A DNA stretch of 64,000 nt, taken from a virus (lineage: Duplodnaviria; Heunggongvirae; Uroviricota; Caudoviricetes). This document shows, piece after piece, positions 45,056 through 62,828 of this stretch. Made by a program: the position numbers and the translations under genes. Within the stretch, counting starts at the first letter, position 1. Every line of letters begins with the position of its first letter. The notes beneath the pieces are model-generated. The model worked only from the letters and a program-made list of their open reading frames with translations. It did not search any database and was not told where the DNA came from. The DNA lies in the IMG/VR virus record IMGVR_UViG_3300032144_000002, positions 12,575 to 76,574 of that record. One strand, written 5' to 3'.

Positions 45056-45056
45056 G

Positions 45057-48292: not shown

Positions 48293-48558
48293 GATTCGCC
48301 CTTCAGCGCCTTGAGCGCGAGCAGTGCGTATGTGTCGGACTTGGTGAACGCCTTCTTGTTGCCCTTGTGAACCTGCTCGATGATTGCTTTCTCGGCATGC
48401 TCCAAGAACACGATGGCATCCATTACTCCCGATGGTGTCTTAGCTTTTGCCTCCTGGCGCAGCTTGATGTTGGCGAGCCTCTTGGCGCGGGCCTCCGGTG
48501 TCCATGCCGGATGGGGCTTCTTGGTCTTCCGCTTGGCGGGTTTTACGGCCGAGCTCAC
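48289..48558 (-). CDS. Hypothetical basic protein (GTG start overlapping upstream stop)
   Basis: VSSAVKPAKRKTKK...; track ORF 48289-48762 extends into neighbour. Confidence 0.3.
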   Translation of the reverse strand: MSSAVKPAKRKTKKPHPAWTPEARAKRLANIKLRQEAKAKTPSGVMDAIVFLEHAEKAIIEQVHKGNKKAFTKSDTYALLALKALKGES

Positions 48559-48791
48559 TTGGCCACCTTCTTGGCGCGGCCGATGGTGCGCTTGGCGATC
48601 TTGCTGGTTTCGAGCACCTCGACCATCCTGCAGTCGTAGCGCTTGAGGTTGGCACGGCGAGTGAGCACGGCCGGAACTCCGCGGCGTCTCCACATGCCCA
48701 TGCTGGCGCGACAGTTGGTGCATGCATCCAACTTTGAGTTGGGTGACAGCGCACGGTCGCACTCGGGGATAACACAGAACTTCGTAGTCAT
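48555..48791 (-). CDS. Zinc-finger protein
   Basis: CVIPECD...CTNC. Confidence 0.35.
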   Translation of the reverse strand: MTTKFCVIPECDRALSPNSKLDACTNCRASMGMWRRRGVPAVLTRRANLKRYDCRMVEVLETSKIAKRTIGRAKKVAK

Positions 48792-48852
48792 GATGATTCC
48801 TTGTCGATGTTTATATGAATGGAGCTATTGCTCGTTGCTCAACTGGCTATCG

Positions 48853-49554
48853 TCAGGCGTCAACTTCCTCCATGTTAGACTGCGTTGAGGTGAACCTTCC
48901 GGTGTGGGTCCCTTCAGCAACTGAGCGGCTGTTCAGTACGCGCATGATCTCCTGATCGAGCGCGGCACCACTGAGCACCGTGACCTGAATGGGCTGTGCC
49001 CTACGCTGCTCGGCCCGGCTGGCGTACTGCCGGCCCGGCTGCTGGCGGGCCACTACTGCCGGCGGGGCAGCGGCAGGCCCCTTATAAGGTGTGCCCCGGC
49101 CTACGCTGGCGGGCTGTGGGCGGCCTTGCGCCCCGGGGCCTGCCTGCCCTAGCGGCCCCGCTTGCCGGCCCGCCGTGGGGCCTTGCTGTGCGCCCCTACG
49201 CTGGCCGCCGGGGCCTGCCTTTGGGGCCGGCTGGCGCGGCGGGGCAAACCCGGGCCGCATGCACTGGCCGCCAGCGTATACAGGCACCGGCTTCAGGCCC
49301 GGCTCCAGCGCATACACGTATGCCCTGACCGGCGCGTTGTCTTCATCGTACTCTTTCTGAAGCCTGTCAGCTTCAATGCAGTGCGCGATCAGATCGCCGT
49401 TGATCGAGTATGAACGCTGAAGCCGTTCAAACAGAATGATGCACCGGCTGCCACGGTACATCTCAACCTCCACGTTCGAGTCATTGACTACCTTGTTCTC
49501 GTCGCTCTTGGTCCTGCAGACGTGTGCCCACACCGAAAAGATCACGTATTTCAT
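48853..49554 (-). CDS. Hypothetical protein; only the N-terminal about 95 aa look protein-like, the remainder is Pro/Gly/Gln-rich read-through of GC island R2 and may be noncoding
   Basis: Central region coincides with GC-rich repeat island containing TATAAGGTGTG motif. Confidence 0.3.
   Translation of the reverse strand: MKYVIFSVWAHVCRTKSDENKVVNDSNVEVEMYRGSRCIILFERLQRSYSINGDLIAHCIEADRLQKEYDEDNAPVRAYVYALEPGLKPVPVYAGGQCMRPGFAPPRQPAPKAGPGGQRRGAQQGPTAGRQAGPLGQAGPGAQGRPQPASVGRGTPYKGPAAAPPAVVARQQPGRQYASRAEQRRAQPIQVTVLSGAALDQEIMRVLNSRSVAEGTHTGRFTSTQSNMEEVDA
48960..49280. repeat. GC-rich repeat island R2
   Basis: GGCCGGCTGGCGCGGC (as in R1), CTTATAAGGTGTGC (as in R3 and reverse in R4). Confidence 0.4.
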
Positions 49555-49766
49555 TATTCTTCGACCCCTAACTTCTTGGCCAATGACAGCAGCGCTGTCC
49601 GGTTCTTCGCGTCAAGGAACCTTCTGATTGATGCCGCAGCATCGGCCCCTTCGCTGACAAGGATACCTTCGATCTCCACCACGCCCATCTCACGCGGTGC
49701 CACCGTGTCCAACGGTGGAGGTTTGGGCGGTCGGGCGTTGTAGTCAACGTAATCTCGGACGCTCAT
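49554..49766 (-). CDS. Hypothetical protein (start MSVRDYVDY)
   Basis: Track ORF 49554-49820. Confidence 0.3.
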   Translation of the reverse strand: MSVRDYVDYNARPPKPPPLDTVAPREMGVVEIEGILVSEGADAAASIRRFLDAKNRTALLSLAKKLGVEE

Positions 49767-50062
49767 GTAAGTGCCTCCTTTGGCAGCTTGAGTTCGCGCG
49801 CGATGCCCGCATGCCAGCACGGAGGCTTGCCCGGATGCTTCGCGTCTTCAAGGTACGGCCCGTCCTTGTGCAGCACCATGCCGAGGACCTTCCGTAGCCA
49901 CATGATCAGGTCACCGCGCGCCCTGAAGGCGTTACCGTCCTGCAGCCACTCTTGATCGTGGCTTCGAACTTCAAGGCAGTGCCATCCCTTGGCGTTGATG
50001 CCCGTACGAAACGATGAGAAAGTGATCTCGCGGGCCTTGACTGGCTTCTTGCTGGTCTTCAT
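49763..50062 (-). CDS. Hypothetical protein (start MKTSKKPVKAR)
   Basis: Track ORF 49763-50137. Confidence 0.3.
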   Translation of the reverse strand: MKTSKKPVKAREITFSSFRTGINAKGWHCLEVRSHDQEWLQDGNAFRARGDLIMWLRKVLGMVLHKDGPYLEDAKHPGKPPCWHAGIARELKLPKEALT

Positions 50063-50352
50063 GCGGCGCTCCTTGCTGGCTTCTTCCGATGCGAAGACTG
50101 GTAGTGGTAGTCGAACCTGTACCATGCATCCATGCACATGGCATAGAGTTCGCCACCAGTCAGGCCGAACCGCGCGCCGACCACCTCGGCTACACGCATG
50201 GCCTCATCTTCAGCGATCCTACCATGCGCGGCGTCAGAGAACTCACCGCCGTCAAAGTGACGATCGCAAGCGTGGGCCTCGCTGAGACCGTCTTGTATCG
50301 GGGTCATCACCCGACTGAAGGCGCGCACTGCTACCATGTTAACGCTTTGCAT
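50059..50352 (-). CDS. Hypothetical protein (start MQSVNMV)
   Basis: Track ORF 50059-50502. Confidence 0.3.
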   Translation of the reverse strand: MQSVNMVAVRAFSRVMTPIQDGLSEAHACDRHFDGGEFSDAAHGRIAEDEAMRVAEVVGARFGLTGGELYAMCMDAWYRFDYHYQSSHRKKPARSAA

Positions 50353-50623
50353 GGCGGGTCTCCTCGGCGCGGATCTGGAAGTTATCGATGATATCCTCGA
50401 TACCATCATCACCCTCGAACTCGCCGGCCTCGAAGTCGATGCCAGCTTCATCAGCCACGAATGAGATGATATCGAGGCAGCACTGTACGAGCGCCTTGGC
50501 ATGGGTCAGCTCATCGTCCGACAGCGGCTGGCTGTTACTAGCCGCCATGTTCTCGAGCTTCTCTTGGCAGAGCCCAAGATCGCGCAGCGTGTTGTAGAAC
50601 AGATTCGAGTTGTCAGTAACCAT
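50339..50623 (-). CDS. Hypothetical acidic protein with conserved 5' leader element
   Basis: Start MVTDNSNLFYN preceded by CCATCAACTGCCAAGGAGCACTCAAT. Confidence 0.35.
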   Translation of the reverse strand: MVTDNSNLFYNTLRDLGLCQEKLENMAASNSQPLSDDELTHAKALVQCCLDIISFVADEAGIDFEAGEFEGDDGIEDIIDNFQIRAEETRHAKR

Positions 50624-50657
50624 ATTGAGTGCTCCTTGGCAGTTGATGGTATTGATG

Positions 50658-50852
50658 TCAGTGTTGCGGTTCAGACAGCTTGATTGCGCGCTCGTACTCC
50701 GCCAGCCATGCCTGCTCATTCGCAAGCAGCTTTTGAAGTTGCCGGATTTGGGATTCCGTGCTGCGCTTTTGATTGAGCAGCGACGAGAGCGAGAAACATC
50801 GTACCAGTGTACGCACCCTTCGATCGGATGCCGTGCCGTTCGTCCTAGACAT
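50658..50852 (-). CDS. Hypothetical small protein (start MSRTNGT, GGAAGGAG RBS)
   Basis: Track ORF 50658-50912. Confidence 0.3.
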   Translation of the reverse strand: MSRTNGTASDRRVRTLVRCFSLSSLLNQKRSTESQIRQLQKLLANEQAWLAEYERAIKLSEPQH

Positions 50853-50886
50853 GATGGTCTCCTTCCTGGAGTTGCGACGTTGATGT

Positions 50887-51213
50887 TCAGTAACAGGACT
50901 CAAGCAAGTCAAACGCGATCAGCTTGTGCTGATCATCGTTGCCAGAGCCGGCAGGCAGATCCTGCATAGTCTGGCCATGGACGGTGTAGCCGCTGTCGGC
51001 TGCACCGCCAAGAAAGTACGCCAAGAGCTCCATACCCTTGCGCTTGCTGGTGTTGTGGAAGTGAGACAGGTACGCTTCGAGTTCCTTCTCGGCGCGCTCC
51101 ATGTCTTGCGGCTTGAAGCCCGCGAAGTCTTCTTCCTTGAACCGTCCGCCGCTGTTGGTGGCGAACGCTCCGTCAAAGAACTTCACGAGCAGTGGGTAGG
51201 TATCTTTCATCAT
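50887..51213 (-). CDS. Hypothetical protein (start MMKDTYPLL)
   Basis: Track ORF 50887-51354. Confidence 0.3.
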   Translation of the reverse strand: MMKDTYPLLVKFFDGAFATNSGGRFKEEDFAGFKPQDMERAEKELEAYLSHFHNTSKRKGMELLAYFLGGAADSGYTVHGQTMQDLPAGSGNDDQHKLIAFDLLESCY

Positions 51214-51223
51214 GGCTGATACC

Positions 51224-51391
51224 TCAGTGCAGACGCGACGACCAGAACGCCGTGTACTTGGCGATATAGTCGTCGAAGAGCGCCTGAATTTCCTTGGCGC
51301 TGGTGGACGAGATGAGCGCTGCCTTGTAGGCATCGTTCGCCTGCTTGACGTCAACCGCTGTGACGCGGTTCGGATCGTTCTCCCTGATCAT
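51224..51391 (-). CDS. Small hypothetical protein (55 aa, MIRENDPNRVTAVDVKQANDAYKAALISS...), below ORF-track length cutoff
   Basis: ATGA overlap with upstream stop; GGAGG RBS. Confidence 0.3.
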   Translation of the reverse strand: MIRENDPNRVTAVDVKQANDAYKAALISSTSAKEIQALFDDYIAKYTAFWSSRLH

Positions 51392-51606
51392 GTGCGCCTC
51401 CTTGAGTCCAGTTCGGCTGTCAGCAGTTGCTTGCTGTTGAAGATTGAATCAGCGGTTTCGCGCCACTGAGTTCGCAGCAGTTTGGTCTCAGCAATGAGTG
51501 ACCACGCCTTGCAGTGCGTGATCAACATTTCACAGTGCGTGATCATCACCCGTAGCGTCTTCACCGTGAGCTTCTTGCGATTGCGCGTTGCGATTTCAAT
51601 GTTCAT
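51388..51606 (-). CDS. Small hypothetical protein (start MNIEIATRNRKK)
   Basis: Contains internal 13-bp direct DNA repeat CAGTGCGTGATCA x2. Confidence 0.3.
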   Translation of the reverse strand: MNIEIATRNRKKLTVKTLRVMITHCEMLITHCKAWSLIAETKLLRTQWRETADSIFNSKQLLTAELDSRRRT

Positions 51607-52523
51607 GCGGCCTCCTTGCTGGCGGCTTCGACTTCTTCCCACGCACTGCGGTACTCATCGATGACCTGCTTGCGGCTGTAGCACTGCCCGATGCGCAGCA
51701 CCACCTCCTTCGCCTTCACACGCTCGCGCAGCGTGTACGGAAGACCCGTACCGAGCGCGCCACCGAAGCCCGAGCTTGCAGTCCACGGACCGCAGCCCAT
51801 CGCAGCGAACCCGGCTGAACGCATGAACCCGACACTGACCATTGCGCACAGCCTGTCAAGCACGACCGGATCATTGGTCTTCTTGACGCACCACGCAGAC
51901 CACAAACGGGGCGGAGCCTTCTGACCCCACTGGAACGGATTGCTCGTGCTGTCGATGACCCAGATTTCCATGATGCGGCCTGCACGAGCCAAGCTGTCAA
52001 CGAGCAGAGTGCAAAGCGCCGCACGCCACATGGCCATGTCATTGGTGACGTTGGCGTTAGCCGTCACGTCGAACGCAAGCGTGATGCGCTTGGTATTCGG
52101 CGCTTGCCGTTCAACGCGCACCGGCCTCGCCCATGCCGTATCAACCTGACCGTTCCAAACGCGGGTCATGTCGATTGAATCGCCGTGGTCATCGTGCCGA
52201 GTCTTGCGCCGGCGCACAGTGGCGTGCGTCGGGAAGATCGGCAGCTCAAGGTCGATACCCTTCAGCATCTTCAGAACCTGCTCACGCAGCTCAGGCCAGC
52301 CGTTCTGAACGCGGCGCTGCACTCCGTGGAAGCCGTCGCTGCATCCCCACCAGCGGTCACCGCTCATGCTGGTGATGCTGTTCATGAAGTGCGGCTTCTT
52401 CTCCTGTATCTGCTTCAGATCAGGCAGGAATTCTTCATACGAATCCCACTCATACGAGACGCCAGCGAGCTCGCCGTTCTTGCCGGTCATCTCAACGATG
52501 CGAACGTTGTCAGTCTTGTTCAT
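51603..52523 (-). CDS. Putative partner of AAA+ ATPase (CobT/VWA-like?)
   Basis: Start MNKTDNVRIVEM overlapping ATPase stop; ITLAFDVTANANV weakly resembles VWA MIDAS region. Confidence 0.3.
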   Translation of the reverse strand: MNKTDNVRIVEMTGKNGELAGVSYEWDSYEEFLPDLKQIQEKKPHFMNSITSMSGDRWWGCSDGFHGVQRRVQNGWPELREQVLKMLKGIDLELPIFPTHATVRRRKTRHDDHGDSIDMTRVWNGQVDTAWARPVRVERQAPNTKRITLAFDVTANANVTNDMAMWRAALCTLLVDSLARAGRIMEIWVIDSTSNPFQWGQKAPPRLWSAWCVKKTNDPVVLDRLCAMVSVGFMRSAGFAAMGCGPWTASSGFGGALGTGLPYTLRERVKAKEVVLRIGQCYSRKQVIDEYRSAWEEVEAASKEAA

Positions 52524-53704
52524 CAGATCGTCACGAGCGTGCGCTCGGCCTCCGTCCAACCGGTGAAGTATGCCTTGGCCCACTGCTCAGGACCCCACTT
52601 GTGCATGGAGGTCATGGTGGCAAGGTGCTCGATTACTCGCGTTGACATGATGCGGCGCAAGGCGTTCTTGCGGATGTTGGCGCGAATCTTCCATGCCCAC
52701 TCGCACAGCTCGGTTGAAGCAATGCTGGCTTCAACGTCGCGGCTGTAGTCCATGGTAATCATGCCAATCTTGAAGCGGTCAAGCGTGGCAGCATCGAGCT
52801 GATTGCGGCCGACATACATTGCGTCGGCGCCGCTGCCGTAGGTATTGGCAGCAGCGGCCAGCACAAAGTTCGGCGACTTCTTCACGACCGGATTCTTGTA
52901 CCGCTGCTCTGCGGTATAGCTCTTGTTCGCGATGGCCTTATTGATGTAGGTGAACAGGTTAGGGTCACCGGCATCAATCTCGTCAAGGAGCATCACGCCG
53001 CCCTTCTCGTAGCGGCGCATGAAAGGCGATTCAACATGCTCGAACGCACCGTTCTTGCCGACGGGCAGAAGCTTGCCGTTGAACACCGATTCGCTCATGC
53101 CCTCGCTGCACGACTGATCGCTGAACTCCATGTTCAGCGCTTCAGCCAGCTTCTCGCACAAGTAGGTCTTGCCGCAACCTGCAGGGCCTACCAGCATGAT
53201 TGGCACGCGCGCCGTGGCCAGTTCAAGCATCATCTTGAACTCGGGCGGCAGCACGCCCTTGACGGTGCGCGTCTTGCCGGCTTCCTTGATGACAAACGGC
53301 GCAACCTTTTCGGCGGCGGTGGCCAGTGCCTTCTTGGCCGCTGCCTCGAAGCCGGCAGTGGCCTGATTGGCCGCTTTGACCACGAACTCTTCGGCCCGTT
53401 TCTCAACATCACCAACCGTGGCCATCGCGACGCTGGTGGTGATTTCAAGGAATCGCTTTTCAGAATCAGTGGTCGGCTTGATGCCACCCGGCTGCTGCAG
53501 CAGCACGATGGCCTCATACGCTGCTTGAGCGCGTTGCGGCTGTGCCTTGATGGCCTCGACCAGTATGGTGTCGGCGTCAGCGCGCTTCTTGGCTGCCTCG
53601 ACGCGGTTGCGAACAGCCAGCCAGTCCGCCATGATGCGGACCTGAGCCATGTGCAAGCGACCGACCGGGCAGGATTCTACGTTGTTAGGAAACTTGAAAG
53701 CCAT
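52523..53704 (-). CDS. AAA+ ATPase, AAA_5 (MoxR/CbbQ/CobS-like) family
   Basis: Walker A IMLVGPAGCGKTYL, Walker B VMLLDEIDAG; N-terminal coiled-coil extension. Confidence 0.7.
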   Translation of the reverse strand: MAFKFPNNVESCPVGRLHMAQVRIMADWLAVRNRVEAAKKRADADTILVEAIKAQPQRAQAAYEAIVLLQQPGGIKPTTDSEKRFLEITTSVAMATVGDVEKRAEEFVVKAANQATAGFEAAAKKALATAAEKVAPFVIKEAGKTRTVKGVLPPEFKMMLELATARVPIMLVGPAGCGKTYLCEKLAEALNMEFSDQSCSEGMSESVFNGKLLPVGKNGAFEHVESPFMRRYEKGGVMLLDEIDAGDPNLFTYINKAIANKSYTAEQRYKNPVVKKSPNFVLAAAANTYGSGADAMYVGRNQLDAATLDRFKIGMITMDYSRDVEASIASTELCEWAWKIRANIRKNALRRIMSTRVIEHLATMTSMHKWGPEQWAKAYFTGWTEAERTLVTI

Positions 53705-53738
53705 GTTAAGTGCTCCTTAGCAGTTGATGGCGTGGATG

Positions 53739-53942
53739 TTACTGTTGATTGTAATCAGGATAAACCCAGCCGCCGACCTCTGGGTCGTAGCGACCACCGC
53801 GCTCCTTGCGGTAGATGTACTCGCCGAGTTCATCGGCTTCAGCGTCGAGCTCAGCTGCCTTCTCGATGTCGCCACGAGCGCGGGCCTCCGCCTCGTCTTC
53901 CTGCAGCTTGATCCAGCGTTGCTTCAGTTCGGCGATTGTCAT
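53739..53942 (-). CDS. Hypothetical small acidic protein
   Basis: 67 aa. Confidence 0.3.
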   Translation of the reverse strand: MTIAELKQRWIKLQEDEAEARARGDIEKAAELDAEADELGEYIYRKERGGRYDPEVGGWVYPDYNQQ

Positions 53943-54193
53943 GCGTTCACCCAGTTGATTACAGCGCCGTATGTTTCGTTGGTGCTGAAGTGCACCTGCG
54001 TCTTGTGCACGCTCTCAGGCACGGCCTGTACGATGAATTCCTTCGCGGCGATCACTTCGCCAAACTGCACGTCGTGTTCTTTGCACGTAGCGGTGAGGAT
54101 GTTACCGACGTATGAAACGCGCCAGCCGATGCCGTCGTACTTCATGCCTTTGAGGTGCTTGCGCAAAAGCTTATTCAGTTCGTTGATTTCCAT
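53939..54193 (-). CDS. Hypothetical protein (start MEINELNK) with conserved 5' leader element
   Basis: Track ORF 53939-54412 starts at an upstream TTG. Confidence 0.35.
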   Translation of the reverse strand: MEINELNKLLRKHLKGMKYDGIGWRVSYVGNILTATCKEHDVQFGEVIAAKEFIVQAVPESVHKTQVHFSTNETYGAVINWVNA

Positions 54194-54227
54194 GTTGAGT
54201 CTCCTTTGAGAGTTGATGGCGTAGATG

Positions 54228-54434
54228 CTACAGGTCACCAAGACCGAGCTTGTCGGCTGCTGCGCACAGCGCGGCATCGACGCCCTCTTCGAGGTTGAAG
54301 CTGTCGAGTTCAACAGCGCCCTCATTAACCAGCTCAATGGCCAGGACGATCTCTTCGTCCGAAACCAGCTCTTGCTCGCCGTCCTTGGCAAACATTGCGC
54401 GCAGAGATTCAAGTACCTGATGCTTAGTTACCAT
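54228..54434 (-). CDS. Hypothetical small acidic protein with conserved 5' leader element
   Basis: 68 aa, pI acidic. Confidence 0.35.
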   Translation of the reverse strand: MVTKHQVLESLRAMFAKDGEQELVSDEEIVLAIELVNEGAVELDSFNLEEGVDAALCAAADKLGLGDL

Positions 54435-54467
54435 GTTGAGTCTCCTTTGAGAGTTGATGGCATTGAT

Positions 54468-54545
54468 TGAGCGTTCCGTTCAACAGGCTGAATTTCAACC
54501 CGCTGAAAGGAACGCTCGGTGCTTTGTTCTTTCACCGAGCGTTAC
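54468..54545 (-). promoter_or_regulatory. Leader RNA element with two mutually exclusive hairpins (terminator/antiterminator-like) upstream of gene 54228-54434
   Basis: On the mRNA: AACGCUCGGUG-loop-CACCGAGCGUU (11-bp stem, then CCUUUC) competes with GAGCGUUCC-31 nt-GGAACGCUC (9-bp stem) through shared GAGCGUU. Confidence 0.4.
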
Positions 54546-54779
54546 CGTTGCTTCCGTACCAAACACAAACTAGTTACCCGTACTGTCCTGCATTGCGCTG
54601 CTGCGATGAGAGGGCCTTGCGACCGGAGCCACGCATAAGCGTGTAGACAACCGGCAAGCGCCACACTGGCAATGCACCGTCGTTGATGCTGAGTAGGCAT
54701 TTGGATTTTCAAAGCGGGCCGCTGTACTTGCGCCGCTGACCAAGATGCTTCATGGGCCTCTTGGTGCCTGACCACTCGC

Positions 54780-55200
54780 TTATACCGCTCGGAGCGGACC
54801 GGCCGGTGCGCCGGAGTACCGTGCTAGGGTTAGGGTTCAGGTGGCTGGCGTTGCCGCTCAACCGTTTCTAGCAACCGGCGCATAACGCCTGACGCTGCCC
54901 CTGTACCGCCCTTCGGCTGGCGCTTGCCCGTTGCGCCGGTACGTTTGGGGCCTAGGCCCCGGGCCACCCGCTAGCTAGGCGGGCACCTTATTATAAGGTG
55001 TGCAACAGGGGTTGTTGCAACGGTACTGGCGCACAAAATGGGCACAACAAAAACCGTTGCAAAACAAGCAGTTGCGGACGCCACTACCGGCTGGGAGCGC
55101 CCCTAGGCGGCCTCCCGGCCCGTTTGGGGCGGTTTTGGGCCTGCCAGCCGGTGCCAGCGCAACCGCCTAGGCACCGGGCCGCCAGCTCATCTCCCAGGTA
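54780..55200. repeat. GC-rich repeat island R3 within a 760-nt noncoding region (54435-55200)
   Basis: CCTTATTATAAGGTGTGC; inverted repeat TTGCAACGGT...ACCGTTGCAA; several CCTAGG; GGCTGGCG elements; possible TTGCAA-N19-TATAAT promoter reading toward lower coordinates. Confidence 0.45.
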
Positions 55201-55617
55201 TCAGCCCTCAGGCTGTACCCTCATACCCTCTTGCGCTGTTTCAGGCGCACCGAGACCCATGCTGACTCCAGCCTGTTGTTTCAGCAGATGCTTGGCTCTG
55301 ATCTGTGACGTCTTGCTCATGCACCGCACCAGCTCATCTCTGGCGAGGTTCTCCATCTTGAGCCCATGCGCTGAACAGAACGCGGCAAGTGTTACCAGCG
55401 TGCCGCCGACTTCTTGCGGCAACTCACCGACCGGTCGGTTGTAGACGTACTCGACAAGCTGCAGCACCCGCTCTTTGGACACGCCAGCCGCCTGCATCAG
55501 TTCGAGCGTTTCTTCGAGCACACGATCTGCGCGCTCTTCCTTGCTCTCCACCACTACCTTGCCAAAGCACAGCAGCGCCCATCCGGTGGCGGTGCGTTGG
55601 AACTCTGCTATTCTCAT
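55201..55617 (-). CDS. Second MazG-like / all-alpha NTP pyrophosphohydrolase-family protein
   Basis: EETLELMQAAGVSKERVLQLVEYV...ELPQEVGG resembles MazG/HisE-fold NTP-PPase motif (EExxE ... metal-binding acidic helix). Confidence 0.4.
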   Translation of the reverse strand: MRIAEFQRTATGWALLCFGKVVVESKEERADRVLEETLELMQAAGVSKERVLQLVEYVYNRPVGELPQEVGGTLVTLAAFCSAHGLKMENLARDELVRCMSKTSQIRAKHLLKQQAGVSMGLGAPETAQEGMRVQPEG

Positions 55618-55955
55618 GCGAACTCCTTCACCATGAGCAGCAAGGCGCAGTACGCTTCGAGCTCGGTCTCACCGCTGGCCCTGTATCTCGTCGGCGTCAC
55701 GTCATCACCGGATGAGTCTTCGGCGCATACTTCGATGAGGTCATTAGTTGCCCAATGCGTCGCATGAACGTTGAACCCCGCTTTCTTGAGCGCGGCTCGA
55801 ACGTGAGAGCACGTCTGCAGCGGCCATGCTTTGACAGCCTGCGCTGAGTAGGTGAAGCCGAGGCGAGCTTGGATGATCTGCGATACTCGTTCATTGTCAA
55901 TGTCGGCCATGTAGTCCTCTGCTGAATACGGTTTCTTGTCAAGTACCTGAAACAC
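55614..55955 (-). CDS. Hypothetical protein
   Basis: 113 aa. Confidence 0.3.
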   Translation of the reverse strand: MFQVLDKKPYSAEDYMADIDNERVSQIIQARLGFTYSAQAVKAWPLQTCSHVRAALKKAGFNVHATHWATNDLIEVCAEDSSGDDVTPTRYRASGETELEAYCALLLMVKEFA

Positions 55956-55965
55956 TGTCGTTACC

Positions 55966-56337
55966 CTAGCGGATGCCGTGCTCTTTCTCCCTCTTTGGCA
56001 CCAACGGCTGGTTGAACACTCGTTCGAGCCATCCGAAGAAACCCGCGAACAGCTTTGGTGAGACGTCGAAGATCGCGGCCAGTAGATTTCCTACGGGCAT
56101 GATAGTGACAATAGCGCGACCGATCAACGAGCCAACTGTATCAGTGGGGTTGTACAAGTTGTTCTCGCCGTTGGCCGCGCGTGCCTCGCCTTCCGCACGC
56201 TTCTTGGTGTCGATCTGGTAGTTCGCATGTGTCCTCATCAGATAGCCGATGGCGCAGGTCACCAGCGGAATCCAGTAGAGCACCAGCGCGATCCACGGCG
56301 TGGTAGCGGCGTTCTTGATCCAGTCAATCATGTTCAA
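55966..56337 (-). CDS. Two-TM membrane protein (possible partner of second SPFH protein)
   Basis: Hydrophobic helices WIALVLYWIPLVTCAIGYLM and GRAIVTIMPVGNLLAAIF. Confidence 0.35.
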   Translation of the reverse strand: MNMIDWIKNAATTPWIALVLYWIPLVTCAIGYLMRTHANYQIDTKKRAEGEARAANGENNLYNPTDTVGSLIGRAIVTIMPVGNLLAAIFDVSPKLFAGFFGWLERVFNQPLVPKREKEHGIR

Positions 56338-56343
56338 TCTCCT

Positions 56344-56922
56344 TTACAGTCTCTTGGTATCACCATCGGCCGAACGAGTGTCCATGCGACTGTTGTAGTC
56401 GCTGTACATCCCCAGTCCGGTGTTCAGAAAGCGGTACGTTCGACAGACAGCAAAGTCTGTCACGTTGAATGAGTAGAGCTGCAGTCCGTAGTTATCCAGC
56501 TCATGCGCCAGACTCTCGGCCACGAACTTTTCGAGCTCAGTTGCCGTGATCTGCGACAGTGATCTTTCACGCATGAACGATGCGATGGCGCCTTGGGCTT
56601 TCTGCGTGATCGTGTCGTGCGCGTTGTGAAGCTTCGTGTAGAGCTTCAGTATGTCGTGCACCTCATACCGCATTGAGCTGGCGATGCTGATTGGCTTGCC
56701 ATCGGCAGTCGTGATGATCTGACCTTCCACAAAGTGAGCCCTCAGTCTGGTTGGCTGCACGAATGTCTGGTGGATCAACGGTATGCGCAAGTGAACACCC
56801 GGTTGCAGAAGCGTGACGTGCTTACCAAGCTTCACACGTAGCCCTTGCTCCCATGGGGATATGGTGATCCACCATTGGAACAGCTCTTTCAAGCCTTCCT
56901 TGATCTGTTGGACGATGTTCAC
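56344..56922 (-). CDS. Second SPFH/band-7-like domain protein
   Basis: WITISPWEQGLRVKLGKHVTLLQPGVHLRIPLIHQTFV...YEVHDILKLY follows the N-terminal beta-rich pattern of SPFH domains. Confidence 0.5.
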   Translation of the reverse strand: MNIVQQIKEGLKELFQWWITISPWEQGLRVKLGKHVTLLQPGVHLRIPLIHQTFVQPTRLRAHFVEGQIITTADGKPISIASSMRYEVHDILKLYTKLHNAHDTITQKAQGAIASFMRERSLSQITATELEKFVAESLAHELDNYGLQLYSFNVTDFAVCRTYRFLNTGLGMYSDYNSRMDTRSADGDTKRL

Positions 56923-57470
56923 TCGGCGCTCCTGTGCTCGGCGGTCGGCAATTCAACAGTCAGGTCGATGCCCATGCTCTGTAGCTGATCATGCAGCGTG
57001 GCCAGCTTCTCTCGCGCCGAGTCACGCGACACACGAGCCTGCGCCAGCTCCACGTCGGAGTGTTCAAGTCTGGTCTGTGTCTGTGACAACCTCTGGTTCA
57101 GCACGGCGATGAACTCGTTGGCCGTGGCCAGCTGATGCTGCAGCTCCTTGGCGTCCTCGCTCATCGTCTCCTTGCGCGCCATGAACCCGAGGTCCACGAA
57201 CACGTCGCCGAACTTGAAGGCCAGCGTATATACAAGCCGGCCATGCGGCTTCATCTCGGTCGGTTCCACGACCTTGATGGCGAACTCCTTCAGCAACTCG
57301 TCGACCACTGTCTGTGGCGCAGCGGCTTCTTCGACCCACGGGATGCAGATGCAATCGAAGTCACGCGCTAGTGATCCATGCACCGTCAGCGCATACCCGT
57401 GCTTTCGAACGATCTCGGCCATGTCGGCGTAGACGCACGCATAGATCGGTGCGTTGTTTGCTGGCTTCAT
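56919..57470 (-). CDS. Minimal nucleotidyltransferase (pol-beta/MNT-like fold) with C-terminal coiled coil
   Basis: HGSLARDFDCICIPW contains GS...D-x-D nucleotidyltransferase signature. Confidence 0.45.
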   Translation of the reverse strand: MKPANNAPIYACVYADMAEIVRKHGYALTVHGSLARDFDCICIPWVEEAAAPQTVVDELLKEFAIKVVEPTEMKPHGRLVYTLAFKFGDVFVDLGFMARKETMSEDAKELQHQLATANEFIAVLNQRLSQTQTRLEHSDVELAQARVSRDSAREKLATLHDQLQSMGIDLTVELPTAEHRSAE

Positions 57471-57643
57471 AGATTCTGGTACTTGCTCGTTGAAATGATG
57501 GCGCGCACTACAGCGCGGATCTTTGGATTGGGAGCTTCGGCATTCAGCTTTGCGAGCTTGCCGACGTCGCTCTGGTATTGCTGATACTCGGCTTCAGCTC
57601 GCTTCAGCTGCTCCGGTGATATCTTGATTATTGGATCTTTCAC
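57467..57643 (-). CDS. Small hypothetical protein (about 58 aa, GTG start, GGGAGA RBS), below ORF-track cutoff
   Basis: VKDPIIKISPEQLKRAEAEYQQYQ...; ATGA overlap with downstream gene start. Confidence 0.25.
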   Translation of the reverse strand: MKDPIIKISPEQLKRAEAEYQQYQSDVGKLAKLNAEAPNPKIRAVVRAIISTSKYQNL

Positions 57644-58242
57644 AGCCCCGGTCTCCCTGTCTTGCAGAGCCAGTGCGTCGGCTCCCTGTTGCCTTCAAGT
57701 TGAATCTGAGTGAACGAGTTCTCGTAATACCACCAGCCGACGTCTGCCGGGTTGCGGTCATCCATCTGCATGGCTTCTTCAAGCGTGCGATACCACGCGC
57801 TCCATGTAACCCACACGGTAGCCATGTTTCTACCGACGATCACCTCATCGCCATCCTTCGGCGCAGTCTCAATCGGCTTCCATCGCATCTCAGGCGTCTG
57901 GTAGAGCCCTTCTGGCTGAAACGAGAATTCCATGATCTCGGCCTGCTTGATCTTGTCACCGTCATAGATCGACGGCATGAAACCAGGATTGCCAAGTATG
58001 GCGCACAGATCATCTCTGCTGACGCCTTCTTGAAAGGTCACCACGATTCTTCCGTTGGCGTTGCTCGTGACGAATCCGAGCGGCGGCTTCGTGTGATCAT
58101 GCTGCATGAGGATTGGCACGTTCGGGTGATCGCCGATTCTACGGAATCCCTGCATCGGCGCCGTCCTTCCACACTCGCCGCAGACAGTGACTTGGATGTT
58201 TCGCCGTCCGCACTTGCAGGTCCAGTTAGAAAGCAGGCTCAT
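57640..58242 (-). CDS. DUF551-domain protein with N-terminal zinc ribbon
   Basis: WTCKCGRRNIQVTVCGECG; WKPIETAPKDGDEVIVGRNMATVWVTWSAWY matches DUF551 tryptophan-rich motif. Confidence 0.45.
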   Translation of the reverse strand: MSLLSNWTCKCGRRNIQVTVCGECGRTAPMQGFRRIGDHPNVPILMQHDHTKPPLGFVTSNANGRIVVTFQEGVSRDDLCAILGNPGFMPSIYDGDKIKQAEIMEFSFQPEGLYQTPEMRWKPIETAPKDGDEVIVGRNMATVWVTWSAWYRTLEEAMQMDDRNPADVGWWYYENSFTQIQLEGNREPTHWLCKTGRPGL

Positions 58243-58862
58243 CGTGACCTCAGCGCGGCGCGCACTTCCATCCACAGACCACCGAGCACGTTCCTTCCGT
58301 TGCGCTTCTCGCCCCAACCCCAGAAGTCGTCACGCCACGAGTTCTCGATCAACACTCGCTCACCGGTCTCCATCAGCTTGCGAGTGACGTACTCATGTTG
58401 ATCGGCCTTGGCCATGATCATCTGCCCCATGATCCCGACCTTCACTCGGTCCCATTCCTTGCGCCGCTGTTCCTTGTAGTGCTGCGCCAGTTGGAACGCG
58501 TCGTGCGCTGAGCGGGCGACAGTGATCAGGTCGCGTATCGTCTGCGACGTCCCTCGGAACTTCTCGGCATGGTAAGCATGCTCGACAGTCGGATAGAGTT
58601 GGCCGTGCCACTCCAATGCGAACGCGCTGAAGTTGGACAGGACATAGAACTCCTGCTCATAGAAGAACACGGCGTTGTCAGTATCGAGTCCGTGGCATTC
58701 AGGGCTCTGTGCCGCCTTGCCGATACCGATGCCGTGCATGTCGAAGATGCCGGTGTCCTTGTCAACGGCATGCTCGTAACCGGCCTCATGCAACTTCGCG
58801 CCGACTTCATAGTAGGCTTGTGGTGACAGTTCCATCACCGCATAGGTATGTGTCGTTCTCAT
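58239..58862 (-). CDS. NADAR (YbiA/DUF1768) domain protein
   Basis: AVFFYEQEFYVLSNFSAFALEWHGQLYPTVEHAYHAEKF...WGWG are the NADAR family signatures. Confidence 0.7.
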   Translation of the reverse strand: MRTTHTYAVMELSPQAYYEVGAKLHEAGYEHAVDKDTGIFDMHGIGIGKAAQSPECHGLDTDNAVFFYEQEFYVLSNFSAFALEWHGQLYPTVEHAYHAEKFRGTSQTIRDLITVARSAHDAFQLAQHYKEQRRKEWDRVKVGIMGQMIMAKADQHEYVTRKLMETGERVLIENSWRDDFWGWGEKRNGRNVLGGLWMEVRAALRSR

Positions 58863-59293
58863 GACTTCGGCGCCTCCTTGAACGTCCGTGCTTCATCGCT
58901 CATGTTGGTTACGTCGATCAATCCCTCGTTAACGTACTGCGGGCTATATGCTGAGTCACACGCGACGCAGCGATACCATCCCGGGAAATCACTTCGGTTC
59001 AGCGGCTTGAACACGTTGGAGTTGCAGCGGCATCTCACCTTTGCAACAGTGACGTCATCCTTGACCACCGGCTTGAAGCCATCGGGCTCAAGGCGAACGT
59101 CCAAGTTCTGCTCACCGACGACTTCAATGTCGACCTCGCAGTGACAGTAGATCTTGGCACGCCATGACCCGCAGACGCTGGCCGTCAGTTCAAGCCCGAA
59201 CACTCCGGGCATTTCGGATCCATCGGGCATGAGGACCTTGGTGCCCTGTGCGGAGCCTTCCGGCCCTGAGATCACTCTGATACGATTGGTCAT
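58859..59293 (-). CDS. Hypothetical Cys-rich protein (start MTNRIRVISG)
   Basis: Track ORF 58859-59344. Confidence 0.3.
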   Translation of the reverse strand: MTNRIRVISGPEGSAQGTKVLMPDGSEMPGVFGLELTASVCGSWRAKIYCHCEVDIEVVGEQNLDVRLEPDGFKPVVKDDVTVAKVRCRCNSNVFKPLNRSDFPGWYRCVACDSAYSPQYVNEGLIDVTNMSDEARTFKEAPKS

Positions 59294-59508
59294 GGGTAGT
59301 TCCTCATCATCTCGTCGATAGCTTCTCTGCTGTTGTAGGCCCAACGTCGTGCCGGGTATTTCATCACGTACTCAAGACGAGCTGTGTCATCACTGACGGC
59401 GTCGATATGATTGATCAGCGGGCGCACCGGGTAGGTGTCACGGTATACGTCACGTATCACTGCCAGCTCGTCAGGAGGCATGGCCTTCGGTGTCTTTTCA
59501 ACAGTCAC
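59290..59508 (-). CDS. Hypothetical protein
   Basis: 72 aa. Confidence 0.3.
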   Translation of the reverse strand: MTVEKTPKAMPPDELAVIRDVYRDTYPVRPLINHIDAVSDDTARLEYVMKYPARRWAYNSREAIDEMMRNYP

Positions 59509-59771
59509 ACGTCACCTCCGTCACCGATCGTTCGGTACGGATACTTCCTGTCAATCAGCAGACGACGAATCTTGATCTGCCAGCCGAACTCATTCTCGTG
59601 AGTATAGCTACCACGCCCTGCGAGCTTGTTCATCCACGACAGGTAGACGCATCTGTCGTAATGACGCTGTATCTTACCGGCCTTGGTCCGCGACTCCCAG
59701 TACTTGCCCCACCCGATCTCAATCAGGTGCAAATCGTCGTTCGGCTGACGCTGAAGGAATATGATTCTCAT
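59505..59771 (-). CDS. Hypothetical protein
   Basis: 88 aa. Confidence 0.3.
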   Translation of the reverse strand: MRIIFLQRQPNDDLHLIEIGWGKYWESRTKAGKIQRHYDRCVYLSWMNKLAGRGSYTHENEFGWQIKIRRLLIDRKYPYRTIGDGGDV

Positions 59772-59783
59772 GTTTATTCCTTG

Positions 59784-60194
59784 TCACTCTTCCTGAAGAT
59801 CGTCAACGCCGGCGCGTCGCAATTCATAGCGCAGCTTGCGGTGGCTGTACTTTAGCAGCCCGGGATTATCCGCCATGAATCGTCTGATGTCCGAAGTGCT
59901 CAACTGCAGGGACGTCTGGAACGCCGCCATGATGTCTGCACGATTGATCGTACCGTGCTCGGTGACATGCTTCATGATGAATTCCTGCCGCTGCTGCATG
60001 GCCCACGTTATCCGACCCTTGCCGCGATCGCGTTTGAACGCCACGACCTTCTCAATGGCCTCAAGTGCCGTCCTTGAGCACTCAGTACAGTCGCTCGGAT
60101 GAAGTGGCACGCCACCGATTGCACCTTCAATGGTGACGCTGCATCCTTTCCGCCATTCAGCAATGATCTCTCTGACTCTCTTTAGCTGCTGCAT
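59784..60194 (-). CDS. Hypothetical protein (possible wHTH regulator)
   Basis: 136 aa; helical C-terminal half. Confidence 0.3.
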   Translation of the reverse strand: MQQLKRVREIIAEWRKGCSVTIEGAIGGVPLHPSDCTECSRTALEAIEKVVAFKRDRGKGRITWAMQQRQEFIMKHVTEHGTINRADIMAAFQTSLQLSTSDIRRFMADNPGLLKYSHRKLRYELRRAGVDDLQEE

Positions 60195-60423
60195 GATTAC
60201 TATCCTTTGAAACGGAGCCTTGATCCGTCTCTACTGTTTTCCGCTATGAGCACACGAACATGGTGCCTAAGACTCCGTAGCGTACCGGCAATCCTAGCCC
60301 TCGATGAATCTGCTGGTATAGACGCAGCGCTTGCTGCCTTGCGTCCATCCGGCGCTCTTGCAGTAACCCTTACCATCAACGTTTCGATGCCGTCATCGTC
60401 GGTCACTACTGTCCTCAAGTGTT

Positions 60424-60651
60424 TCACTTCCCGTGCTCCCTAAGAGTGTAGTCACCGTGATAGCTGGGATATAGGTGAACGTCAGTAGGCGCAGGCCTGA
60501 CACCACGCATGCCTAGTCCGCTCTCGTCGTCTATGACGCAGTTGCGCATATCAACTCCGTATAGACGCGACAACTCTGCAGCACCTATGAAATGACGCTG
60601 CCCGTCATTCTTGCTTTCGACGTATCCAGGATGGAGTATGTAGCGCTTCAT
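60424..60651 (-). CDS. Hypothetical protein
   Basis: 75 aa, ATGA overlap with primase gene stop. Confidence 0.3.
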   Translation of the reverse strand: MKRYILHPGYVESKNDGQRHFIGAAELSRLYGVDMRNCVIDDESGLGMRGVRPAPTDVHLYPSYHGDYTLREHGK

Positions 60652-62825
60652 GCCTTGTTCTCCTTATAGTGACGCGCCCACTCAACCTTCCTGCGATCAG
60701 CCCACTTGTCTGGGTCGATGACAGCGAACAATGAATACTTGGGGCTGCCCGCCTTGATCTGCGCCTTCTTGAATGGGAAGCCGGCCTTCTCCAAGGCATG
60801 GGATATCTTCTTCTCGGTGATGAAGGCCCACCGCCCTTCCGAATGATGATGCAGGAACAGACGGTGGACATCCTCCGCTCGCATCAACTCAAGCGACGTG
60901 CTCACTCCGGACTTGGCGGTCAGCAGGCTCATCGGATCGGACTTGAGGCGATCGATGAACTCCTCGAACTGCGACTTGGCCAGCCCGATCACTTCGGTCT
61001 TGTACACTGTCCAAAGAGCGTCGCCGTTCGGGTCGAAGTCGGAGCAGTCGACGTCGTTCAGCAGATAATGGAGTATCTCGGCTGGCCCATCGCCCTTCTT
61101 TATGTACTCATCGAGCTCTCTGAAGAACTCCATGGGAAGCTTTGATGGAGCTTCAATGACAAAGAACCGACGGTCATTCGGTTCCAATGGCAGCGCATCG
61201 GCGTAGTTGCTGGTCAAGTAGTAGTTGCAGAAGTCGTCGAGCACGATCTCCGATCTAAATTTCCGGTTGACTGTGACTGTATTGCGAGTCACCACGTCTT
61301 TCAACTCACCCATCAGCTCCCTTCTATCCCTGATCGACGACAGATAGACTTCGTCGAACGCCGCGAACTGAGTGTTGCCATCGAATGAGTTGAACTTGCC
61401 GCCAATGTTGCCGGACTTGAACTTCTTGAAGTTCGTGTGCCCGTATATGAACTTGAACAGCGGATCAACTAGAATAGTCTTGCCAGTGCCGTGCATGGCG
61501 CTGTAGATGAAGCATGCCTGCAATAGCTTCGTGCCCGGGTGCTGCAATGGATACGCCAGCCACTGCAGGAACCATTTGACATAGTCCGGATGGCGAATGT
61601 TCCCTTCATCGTCCTTCCCTCCGCCGATCACATGCTCAACGAGCTTCAACCACAGCTTGGGATTTCCCTTCTTTGGTTGAAGCTCGCTCGGCTTCCATGT
61701 ATTCAAGTCACCTTCATCCGTGATCGAGGGTGCTCCCGGCAAGTAGGCCAGTGATCTCACTTGGCGACGGGACGGCCACCTGTACCAGTGCTCCACGGCA
61801 AGGACCGGCTTGCCATCGGAGCCCGTCATCACGCCGGCGGTGGCATAGGCATCCTTCAACTGCCAGAACCCGCTATACTCAGTGTCATGCTCCACTGAAT
61901 AGAATTTCCCGATCTTGTTCACGAAGCAAATCTTCTCGTTCAACTGATGGAGCATGGCTGTTGGACGGAATGACTCCCGATCAAGCTCCTGGAAGGCTCC
62001 CTTCCCATGGGCCAATAGGTAGTCATCGAGCCCAGCCTTGTCGCCGGCGTTCTCACTGGTCAGATGAACGAATGATATTTCAGCCGGAGCGAACTCATGG
62101 GTCAGCACGCTCGCTAACCCATACATGGCATCCCTCACCTCACTCTTCCGAGCGACGTCAGTGTCATAGCAGATTTCTACTTCACGGCCTGCCCACTCAA
62201 TCTGCGTCAGTTCAGGTATGACGTCCCACAGTCGCTTCTTCGCCTTGTATCCGTACACGCCACCGAGGGCTATGCAGTTCAATCCCTTCTTGCAGGCCAG
62301 CGCCGCTTTCTTCTCACCCTCGGTGATCAGGATCTTGGCTGAAGGATCCTTTGCGATCTTCGCCCAGTCCCTGAAGGGTGGCAGATACAGATGGGGTACG
62401 GAGTTTTCCGGTTGAGTGTATTTGTTGCTCGCGCTCTTCTTGTTGAACCCGCCCTTCCGGCTCACCTTTAGTAGACGGACACGGGAGTATTGAATCAGGT
62501 TCCCTTTCAAGTCAAAGTACGGGATCCTGTACCCCGAACGTTGAGTCTTGAACTCCTTGTCCACCTGATCAGGTGTCAAAGGCTCGATCTTCAGGGCCTT
62601 GAAGTCTTTCTTGTCGAGGCCGGATCTTTTCAAATCAGCTAGGGTAACGGAAAGCAGGGAACCGGAGGGTTCCGCTTCCTCATGATCGTGACCGTTGGAT
62701 TTAGAGGTCCTCTCGGTACGGAGCTTCTTGTTCCCCTGTGAACCCCGTGTGGAGGGTTCCGGGTTCCGCTTTGACTTCGAGGACCCGCCGCTACCGTCGC
62801 GGCTGTTGTTCTTTGCGAATGACAT
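60648..62825 (-). CDS. Primase-helicase: N-terminal TOPRIM primase domain fused to SF3/D5-like P-loop helicase
   Basis: TOPRIM ITEGEKKAALACKKGLNCIALGGVYG and ICYDTD; Walker A MHGTGKTIL; ATG at 62825 (track start 62828 is an upstream TTG). Confidence 0.8.
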   Translation of the reverse strand: MSFAKNNSRDGSGGSSKSKRNPEPSTRGSQGNKKLRTERTSKSNGHDHEEAEPSGSLLSVTLADLKRSGLDKKDFKALKIEPLTPDQVDKEFKTQRSGYRIPYFDLKGNLIQYSRVRLLKVSRKGGFNKKSASNKYTQPENSVPHLYLPPFRDWAKIAKDPSAKILITEGEKKAALACKKGLNCIALGGVYGYKAKKRLWDVIPELTQIEWAGREVEICYDTDVARKSEVRDAMYGLASVLTHEFAPAEISFVHLTSENAGDKAGLDDYLLAHGKGAFQELDRESFRPTAMLHQLNEKICFVNKIGKFYSVEHDTEYSGFWQLKDAYATAGVMTGSDGKPVLAVEHWYRWPSRRQVRSLAYLPGAPSITDEGDLNTWKPSELQPKKGNPKLWLKLVEHVIGGGKDDEGNIRHPDYVKWFLQWLAYPLQHPGTKLLQACFIYSAMHGTGKTILVDPLFKFIYGHTNFKKFKSGNIGGKFNSFDGNTQFAAFDEVYLSSIRDRRELMGELKDVVTRNTVTVNRKFRSEIVLDDFCNYYLTSNYADALPLEPNDRRFFVIEAPSKLPMEFFRELDEYIKKGDGPAEILHYLLNDVDCSDFDPNGDALWTVYKTEVIGLAKSQFEEFIDRLKSDPMSLLTAKSGVSTSLELMRAEDVHRLFLHHHSEGRWAFITEKKISHALEKAGFPFKKAQIKAGSPKYSLFAVIDPDKWADRRKVEWARHYKENKA

Positions 62826-62828
62826 CAA

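Follow-up and report, generated by a model that had tools for sequence, protein, structure and literature searches.

The longest gene-free stretch in a 64,000-nt segment of the genome of an uncultivated phage (the window; GC content ~57%), at positions 54435-55200, is a genuine non-coding region, and it is best explained as a region of transcription control inside the long leftward (minus-strand) block of replication/early genes. In our favored reading, to which we give a probability of roughly 0.6, a sigma-70-type promoter is followed by a long structured leader RNA that acts in cis and whose bistable 3' module, formed by two competing hairpins (H1 and H2), controls the downstream operon. In a relative of this phage, the promoter hexamers are conserved and the RNA is conserved above the neighboring genes. 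Compensatory changes maintain four helices (P1, an internal helix, H1, and H2), the overlap between H1 and H2 is kept, and their stability is biased toward the sense strand. The leader and its neighboring genes are read on the minus strand, and coordinates are collected in Table 1.

The region is non-coding and is retained in a relative

The region spans 766 nt and exceeds the runner-up (62829-63552, 724 nt) by a narrow margin, as an earlier note on this DNA (the original prediction) had stated; the claim that it is non-coding was likewise borne out. Codon-usage log-odds, trained on 15 long genes of the window, were negative in all six frames of 54440-55200. Aside from the downstream 68-aa gene, no open reading frame (ORF) led by a Shine-Dalgarno (SD) sequence was found on either strand in 54435-55200, and gene calls on L002, an independent second public assembly in which the identical sequence of the same phage is present, placed no gene there.

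A scan of IMG/VR anchored on PolA found a genus-level relative, contig IMGVR_UViG_3300037511_000246 (66.5 kb), whose PolA has 77% amino acid identity to that of the window; its DNA upstream of the PolA-anchored locus is referred to as L008. At the place where a protein-coding gene in relatives might have contradicted the original prediction, this contig instead has a homologous non-coding stretch of 744 nt (L008 2257-3000, minus strand). By tblastx, the stretch was linked to window positions 54776-54960 in several frames and on both strands, a pattern typical of conservation at the nucleotide level rather than the protein level. Insertions and deletions relative to L008 (1, 1, 1, 1, 7, 3, 2, 1, 1, 4, 5, 2, and 1 nt) are not restricted to multiples of three, the invariant 20-nt block CCUCUCAUCGCAGCAGCGCA falls in different frames of the longest sense ORFs of the two phages, and neither of these ORFs has a ribosome-binding site. 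These results exclude a coding function.

The nucleotide identity of the 5' domain of the leader (~208 nt) to L008 was 78%, compared with 76% for PolA, the most conserved gene compared, and 65%, 61%, 70%, 48%, and 53% for the local genes encoding the ATPase, the DUF7192 protein, the 67-aa protein, the 84-aa protein, and the 138-aa homolog, respectively. Within the leader, identity was ~50% in the middle (~220 nt) and 62% in the 3' part, which comprises H1, H2, and the ribosome-binding region. The neighboring proteins of the relative are only 37-65% identical, yet the region from the promoter to the ATG is retained. The L008 stretch is flanked by a UDP-glucose-dehydrogenase-like gene, which has no counterpart in the window, and by the ortholog of the 84-aa gene (37% amino acid identity). 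The relative lacks the 68-aa gene, and the ribosome-binding region of its leader stands directly before the 83-aa ortholog.

Two full sequences (the window and L008) and a third, partial sequence of 175 nt were available for comparison. A conserved 19-mer matched only the one relative in IMG/VR, where an exact-pattern scan with the palindrome motif gave no match; two exact patterns had no match among representative genomes, and a 21-mer scan of JGI metagenomes returned only a chance match in an unrelated contig (L006). Single-protein scans of IMG/VR with the 138-aa protein, the ATPase, and the primase yielded at best one distant locus, and the 68-aa and 84-aa proteins matched only themselves (ORFans). 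A covariance model of the 5' domain (R1) scored 242-245 bits on both members. It found no second copy in the window and no member in 17 other loci, among them MW202621, four contigs encoding homologs of the 138-aa protein, and 11 loci on other contigs that carry ATPase relatives (31-57% identical); default filters were used for the 17 loci, and filters were turned off for the two closest ATPase relatives. A weak R1 match in L012 was rejected, as it falls within small coding genes. A 790-nt GenBank annotation gap of phage MW202621 (L005, MW202621.1 27587-28374) was also discarded as an analog, as the gap holds an obvious unannotated protein-coding gene.

The whole window gave no match to Rfam 15 at gathering thresholds, and at E values up to 10, window positions 54200-55400 and L008 2200-3100 gave only noise (<=17.5 bits vs thresholds of 38-137). 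The Rfam comparison envisaged in the original prediction thus placed the region in no catalogued family at either setting. ARAGORN found no tRNA or tmRNA. The RNA is an undescribed family of narrow known distribution, with two lineages and one partial sequence known to date. A structured phage leader or non-coding RNA with alternative hairpins is a known kind of element, which is present here in a new form.

The promoter hexamers are invariant

The TTGCAA-N19-TATAAT element named as a possible promoter in the original prediction is present at 54990-55020 (minus strand) and is the single match in the window, against 0.01 expected by chance. In L008, it reads TTGCAA-N18-TATAAT, with both hexamers identical and about half of the spacer positions different. 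Invariant hexamers around a diverged spacer are the expected signature of a working sigma-70-type promoter. The hexamers are near consensus at a spacing within 16-19 nt, of which N19 is sub-optimal. A sigma-70-type promoter is the best reading of this sequence. The -35 hexamer lies in an invariant 15-nt block, CAGTACCGTTGCAAC (55014-55028), containing the palindrome GTTGCAAC, and the -10 hexamer plus start region, TATAATAAGGTG, is also invariant between the window and L008. The transcription start site (TSS) would fall at ~54984-54986, 5-7 nt past the -10 hexamer.

The GC-rich motif CCTTATTATAAGGTGTGC (54986-55003) and the 10-bp inverted repeat TTGCAACGGT/ACCGTTGCAA (55015-55024/55053-55062) described earlier are present as well. 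The motifs of the upstream GC-rich island also exist, but the island itself (~55085-55200) is the least conserved part of the region: it is ~90% identical in the partial sequence L003 and only ~45% identical in L008, and its folding z scores (-0.8 to -1.4) were no better than those of shuffled sequences, with no structure signal. The spacer that contains it (55027-55200) carries a second TTGCAACGG copy (55054-55062), and the initial ~50 nt of the leader are partially duplicated in it at 55103-55187 (direct repeats D4, D9, and D16). By this comparison, it is the conspicuous GC-rich island that is dispensable, and the conserved functional element is the plainer sequence past the promoter.

A palindromic operator, CACCTTAT-A-ATAAGGTG (minus-strand reading), was considered and rejected, as the palindrome is not retained in the relative. 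The exact 11-mer CACACCTTATA occurs three times in the window (54992-55002 and 49083-49093 on the minus strand and 63489-63499 on the plus strand; ~0.03 expected). Each copy is oriented with its downstream genes, and the three are located in the promoter spacer overlapping the -10 hexamer, in an in-frame GC insertion, and ~50 nt upstream of an HNH gene, respectively. The idea that this 11-mer marks three promoters is weakened by the copy at 49083-49093, which lies within the in-frame insertion of a real ORF. In addition, two copies of the tandem unit of 62829-63552 make up GAGGGTATGAGGGTA (55216-55230), which falls within the 3'-terminal part of the 138-aa gene, ~200 nt before the promoter. 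The ~90% relative L003 has the identical sequence, which may serve as a shared site for protein binding.

Four helices predicted from the window are maintained by compensatory changes

The predictions of P1, the internal helix, H1, and H2 drew only on the window and preceded any look at the relative. All pairs of these four helices were kept in L008, with 15 two-sided compensatory changes and none broken, and pairing fell to 27-47% in slid controls, in which the partners were shifted by 1-3 columns. Four of the six P1 pairs were changed on both sides and all still paired, and compensatory changes affected 4/5 pairs of the internal helix (54894-54898/54871-54875; helix 91-95/114-118). RNA folding and covariation had been named beforehand as a check on the original prediction, and the maintenance of these helices is in line with it. 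The whole-leader folding z scores were -3.0 and -3.6 for the sense strands and -2.1 for the antisense strand. Secondary structure modeled beyond the four independently predicted helices is provisional.

Besides these helices, the 5' domain contains the invariant blocks CCAAACGUACC (54938-54948), GCCGAAGGGCGGUACAGG (54900-54917), GUCAGGCGUUAUGCGCCG (54876-54893), and CUGAACCCUAACCCUAGCA (54822-54840). The last of these, predicted to be single-stranded, carries a pair of telomere-like CCCUAA units, and no reverse transcriptase was noted in its vicinity.

H1 and H2 share a segment that covaries with both partners

The original prediction described an 11-bp stem followed by CCUUUC and a competing 9-bp stem sharing GAGCGUU. 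The first of these, H1, is present on the minus-sense RNA as described. The competition is also real and conserved, but the competing stem is not of 9 bp: GAGCGUUCC/GGAACGCUC (54509-54517/54469-54477) is the outer part of the 22-bp hairpin H2. H1 has an 11-nt loop, is preceded by the invariant AAGCAACGGUAA (54542-54553), and extends to 14 bp in the relative. In L008, 11/11 of its pairs were kept with three two-sided and three one-sided (G-U compatible) changes, against 27-41% in slid controls. By a rough estimate, the probability that all six changed H1 pairs stay pairable, if independent, is ~0.375^3 x 0.33^3 = ~0.002. For H2, all 16 tested pairs were kept with four two-sided and three one-sided changes. 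Both phages have an H2 of 22 bp with a single 1x1 mismatch, although the mismatch is placed differently in the two and most of the sequence is changed. It dominates the equilibrium fold, and the 146-nt 3' segment had a z score of -6.1 against shuffled sequences.

The outer 5' arm of H2 (54511-54517, GAGCGUU) is at the same time the 3' arm of H1, with an overlap of 7 nt (window) or 10 nt (L008), so that H1 and H2 are mutually exclusive. At alignment column 489, an A in the window pairs with U in both H1 and H2, and the relative has G, pairing with C and C. At column 491, a C in the window pairs with G in both hairpins, and the relative has U, pairing with G in H1 and with A in H2. The shared bases therefore covary with both partners, indicating that the mutual exclusion itself is conserved and under selection.

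The two hairpins also point to the transcribed strand. H2 was more stable in sense than in antisense in both the window (-34.9 vs -22.3 kcal/mol) and the relative (-37.7 vs -29.1 kcal/mol), a gap of 8-13 kcal/mol, and H1 of the relative behaved likewise (-19.6 vs -13.0 kcal/mol). Both hairpins depend on G-U pairs, hence the strand asymmetry. The hexamers, the leader, and both hairpins were thus kept in the relative with compensatory changes, which agrees with the regulated promoter, leader, or RNA among the candidates first proposed.

Table 1. Coordinates of features of the control region and of the surrounding window
Feature	Position	Strand	Description
TTGCAACGG sites	55054-55062, 55015-55023, 18321-18329		Related GCAACGGTAAC at 54541-54551
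GC-rich spacer	55027-55200	minus	Follows the 138-aa gene (stop codon 55201-55203)
Sigma-70-type promoter (best reading)	54990-55028	minus	-35 TTGCAA 55015-55020; 19-nt spacer; -10 TATAAT 54990-54995
P1 hairpin	54966-54984	minus	Predicted transcript 5' end; present in the window-only minimum free energy fold
Conserved 5' domain	54782-54988	minus	~208 nt; 67-69% GC; 78% nucleotide identity to L008
Variable middle	54561-54781	minus	~50% identity; one invariant 20-nt block, CCUCUCAUCGCAGCAGCGCA, at 54594-54613
H1	54511-54543	minus	11-bp hairpin; arms 54511-54521/54533-54543 (I10); -17.6 kcal/mol
H2	54469-54517	minus	22-bp hairpin with one 1x1 mismatch; -34.9 kcal/mol
Structured translation initiation region	54429-54462	minus	GCCAU/AUGGU and UCUC/GAGA stems
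AAA_5 ATPase	52523-53704	minus	Minus-strand block
PolA	36480-38444	minus	Minus-strand block
DUF3854/DUF5906 primase-helicase	60648-62828	minus	P4-alpha-like; minus-strand block

The ribosome-binding region is a repeated element

The ribosome-binding region begins 7 nt past H2, and its SD sequence AAGGAGA (54441-54447) and ATG (54432-54434) are enclosed by small stems. It contains one copy of a 31-nt exact repeat (54431-54461 and 54190-54220) located before two unrelated small genes, which explains why short-read assemblies break here. Its consensus, ..ATCA(A/C)CTCTCA(A/T)AGGAGAC-N4-5-ATGG, was also found before different genes in relatives (L007 66-93 and 1810-1837, L008 2256-2281, and L013 10562-10588), one of which has an ATPase only 51% identical. 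The repeated region is probably a group-wide translation-initiation module. The 68-aa gene (54228-54434), which matched only itself among 5.8 billion proteins and is absent from the relative, looks from the sequence like a cassette that, together with one copy of the ribosome-binding region, was inserted by recombination between such regions.

Proposed control of the downstream operon

In the favored reading, a host sigma-70-type promoter (55020 to 54990) would start a transcript at ~54985, and the first ~520-550 nt of this transcript would be a non-coding, highly structured RNA in four parts: a 5'-terminal hairpin, the ~208-nt GC-rich multi-helix domain, the variable middle, and the bistable 3' module. 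The 5' hairpin and the compact GC-rich domain would give a stable, structured leader, which would act in cis on an operon of the 68-aa, 84-aa, 67-aa, AAA+ ATPase, and DUF7192 genes and further genes. During transcription, H1 would form first, and the far more stable H2 would then displace it via the shared segment. H1 and H2 would compete for the same 7-10 nt in a module that ends 7 nt before the hairpin-sequestered ribosome-binding site, and which of them forms would decide whether that site has a full two-turn duplex beside it. The choice could be biased by upstream pairing of the 5' arm of H1, by a bound factor, or by transcription speed.

The consequence of the duplex may be an RNase III-type cut that detaches the leader and reshapes the 5' end of the message. 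A 22-bp duplex is of canonical RNase III substrate size, and H2 offers, in both phages, near-continuous double-stranded RNA (22 bp with one 1x1 mismatch) above the ~20 bp looked for; by analogy, H2 is a putative RNase III processing site. Alternatively, the duplex could affect message stability, translation, ribosome access, or Rho loading. In either case, control would not operate through classical intrinsic termination. A more tentative suggestion, which we hold possible at odds well below even, is that this ~520-nt phage RNA represents a new class in which the ~208-nt domain senses a ligand, a protein, or the state of RNA polymerase and is coupled to H1/H2; it would then be a riboswitch-like or ribonucleoprotein (RNP)-type controller of a phage middle-gene operon with no Rfam counterpart.

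Several points weigh against the favored reading. The 19-nt promoter spacer is long for sigma-70, and a promoter consensus scanner left the site unflagged. The TSS and both ends of the RNA, like any processing, are predictions. Conservation is poor across the middle 220 nt, which would be unusual if the 5' domain directly controlled the 3' switch, and no trigger for the H1/H2 switch was identified. RNAalifold on the two sense sequences gave 115 pairs with 25 compensatory changes, but the reverse strand gave 127 pairs with 33 compensatory changes at a similar energy; the 115-pair global model is therefore over-fitted, and we discounted whole-RNA covariation counts. The strand assignment draws mainly on the H1/H2 energies and gene orientation. 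Shuffle statistics, which have low power with two sequences, gave 67/500 for H1 and 30/500 for H2. Finally, the third sequence (L003, SRR14194049), from a ~90% relative, covers only the non-conserved upstream spacer.

Comparison with known systems

The arrangement resembles transcription attenuators (leaders of the trp/pyrBI type and riboswitch expression platforms) in having two conserved, exclusive hairpins in a 5' leader just before a gene, with a shared segment that covaries. It differs from them in lacking a conserved U-tract, a conserved leader peptide, or an Rfam-recognized aptamer, and the ~550-nt leader is far longer. RNase III processing hairpins are found in phage leaders and intergenic regions, such as the T7 R-sites, the lambda N leader, and sib. 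H2 is similar to these as a predicted duplex of about two turns with a small mismatch, placed between a leader and a ribosome-binding site in a long operon; there is no sequence similarity. We know of no T7 RNase III site that is gated by a competing upstream hairpin.

Like the cis-acting antitermination leader RNAs HK022 putL/putR and EAR, the region has a structured RNA with stem-loops from the 5' end, located just past a promoter and heading a very long transcription unit. HK022 put RNAs are ~70 nt with two stems, whereas the conserved domain here has ~208 nt and at least eight helices; EAR is in Rfam yet was unmatched here, and no terminators to override were identified. With the P1/P7 c4 and P4 CI RNAs, the region shares a non-coding RNA in the leader of an operon that it could regulate, with repeated target-like ribosome-binding regions downstream. 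The c4 and CI RNAs are <100 nt, and unlike in those systems, no conserved complementarity between leader and repeated ribosome-binding region was found, and there is no Rfam match. The GOLLD, ROOL, and HEARO class is comparable in its length of hundreds of nucleotides, complex multi-helix fold, phage location, and unassigned function. Those RNAs usually are stand-alone genes near tRNAs in phages of Firmicutes or Actinobacteria, whereas the RNA here has no Rfam match even at E values up to 10 and is a promoter-proximal leader fused to a ribosome-binding site. To our knowledge, long structured RNAs are rare in phages and few have known functions. The present one brings a defined promoter, a conserved core, and a small two-hairpin module with dual covariation, and would provide a tractable system for how a lytic phage times or tunes an internal replication-associated gene block at the RNA level.

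Alternative explanations

The strongest competing explanation makes the conserved 5' domain a trans-acting RNA, that is, a stand-alone stable non-coding RNA with its own promoter that is released when H1/H2 is cleaved or forms a 3' end. Possible roles toward a phage or host partner include those of a protein sponge, an RNP scaffold, and an anti-defense RNA, and expression of the downstream genes would be a read-through by-product. We consider this unlikely but worth serious weight. It would explain why the 5' domain is conserved like the polymerase gene and the linker to H1/H2 is not, why the RNA, at ~520 nt, is far above the size of an ordinary leader, and why it combines a 5'-terminal hairpin with a strong 3' hairpin module, as is typical of stable RNAs. 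However, no terminator separates the RNA from the ribosome-binding site 7 nt past H2, no conserved complementarity to the repeated ribosome-binding region was found, no partner gene (reverse transcriptase, nuclease, or Ro-like protein) was seen adjoining, and R1 detected no further copy, whether in the window or among the 17 other loci. Leader-derived antisense pairing to ribosome-binding regions was tried and rejected, as the best duplexes form at different positions in the two phages and are not conserved.

The terminator/antiterminator arrangement of the original prediction holds for its exclusive hairpins but not for the rest. As a classical intrinsic-termination attenuator, H1 with CCUUUC would terminate before the 68-aa gene and the competitor would act as antiterminator. 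The window agrees with this to the extent that UUCCUUUC (5 U in 8) comes after H1 when H1 is taken as a 9-bp GC-rich stem, and the mutually exclusive pairing is real and conserved. The U-rich tail is not conserved, however, as H1 of the relative is followed by CCGCAUAG, and the 11-nt H1 loop also argues against a terminator. There is no 5' antiterminator: H2 lies 3' of H1 and would form only after the termination decision. Swapping the roles (H1 as antiterminator and H2 as terminator) fails for want of a U-tract, since H2 is followed by A/C-rich sequence in both phages (AAUCAAUGCC in the window and UCCACAACC in L008). A terminator scan found none in 53500-56500, where 2.8 were expected, and only chance-level numbers across 44001-64000. 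As for a sensing device, neither an SD-led or conserved leader ORF (leader peptide) nor an Rfam aptamer was found in the window or L008; a protein site or a novel type of ligand site is possible. An intrinsic-termination attenuator is improbable. An anti-SD role for CCUUUC was also considered and dropped, as it is not conserved.

Slightly less probable still is a DNA-level element, in which the TTGCAACGG sites would be targets of a phage initiator or regulator, marking an origin or partner site in the manner of P4 ori/crr, with the RNA structure incidental. Four TTGCAACGGTA-type sites were found against 0.57 expected, sites recur three to four times in the homologous region of the relative, and the phage encodes a P4-alpha-like primase-helicase (DUF3854/DUF5906). 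The most conserved part, however, is the GC-rich transcribed domain and not the repeat cluster. Of the hallmarks of an origin (an AT-rich element, iterons, and a skew shift), the region has only two to four dispersed TTGCAACGG sites: the conserved core is 67-69% GC with no AT-rich unwinding element, cumulative GC skew runs monotonically through 54-55 kb with no inflection, and classical iterons instead adjoin the primase gene (62829-63552). Compensatory changes and G-U-dependent strand asymmetry indicate selection on RNA. The origin among the original candidates thus gave way to the better, iteron-rich candidate at 62829-63552. From their sequence, the TTGCAACGG sites could be protein-binding sites for a regulator or initiator.

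A sequence without function, left by gene decay or a mobile element or produced by GC-rich repeat expansion as in the other GC islands of this genome, is very improbable. In its favor, 55085-55200 and those islands have the look of lineage-specific expansions, the ortholog in the relative has no R2 (48961-49290), and the upstream part is ~45% identical with no structure signal. Against it, the promoter-to-ATG region is retained beside diverged proteins, with invariant 18-20-nt blocks and compensatory helix changes.

Genome setting and other observations

Plus-strand genes, presumably structural and not annotated here, extend to 18258, and the long minus-strand gene block runs from 18514 to ~62828. 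Besides the genes listed in Table 1, this block encodes a DUF7192 protein, a NADAR protein, and a Band_7 protein. No DNA-level similarity of the region was found to GenBank phages, near or distant, or to plasmids. The closest named phages by PolA and primase (Stenotrophomonas AXL3, Pseudoxanthomonas PW916, and MW202621) have only 30-37% amino acid identity.

The 724-nt gene-free region at 62829-63552 is divergent, lying between the primase operon (minus strand) and an HNH gene (plus strand, ATG at ~63553). It contains three copies of CACTGAAC (63017, 63028, and 63067), two of GGGGTATT (63437 and 63464), and three of GAGGGTAT in tandem (63290-63313) with two inverted copies (63359-63375). If the window holds an origin or early-control region, this stretch is, by its sequence, the likeliest place for it.

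Two other GC-rich islands (up to 77% GC), at 48961-49290 and 18259-18700, have short motifs in common with the island at 55085-55200. The former, in the ORF 48853-49554, is an in-frame P/G/A/Q/R-rich insertion in a real protein whose ortholog (L007 4138-4578) lacks it, and the latter spans a convergent junction and the C-terminus of a DUF3310 protein. The islands look like lineage-specific expansions. GGGCCC is absent from the whole window (~35 expected), and CTAG is ~3-fold depleted (74 vs 238), with 17 of the 74 copies in four non-coding/GC islands; 7 of the 10 CCTAGG sites in the window also lie in non-coding/GC islands. The absence of GGGCCC and the depletion of CTAG suggest restriction avoidance against an ApaI-type system. 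Finally, L008 4381-4782, next to the 138-aa homolog, has ~60% amino acid identity to the plus-strand gene at 15078-15482 of the window, which suggests gene relocation or exchange between modules.

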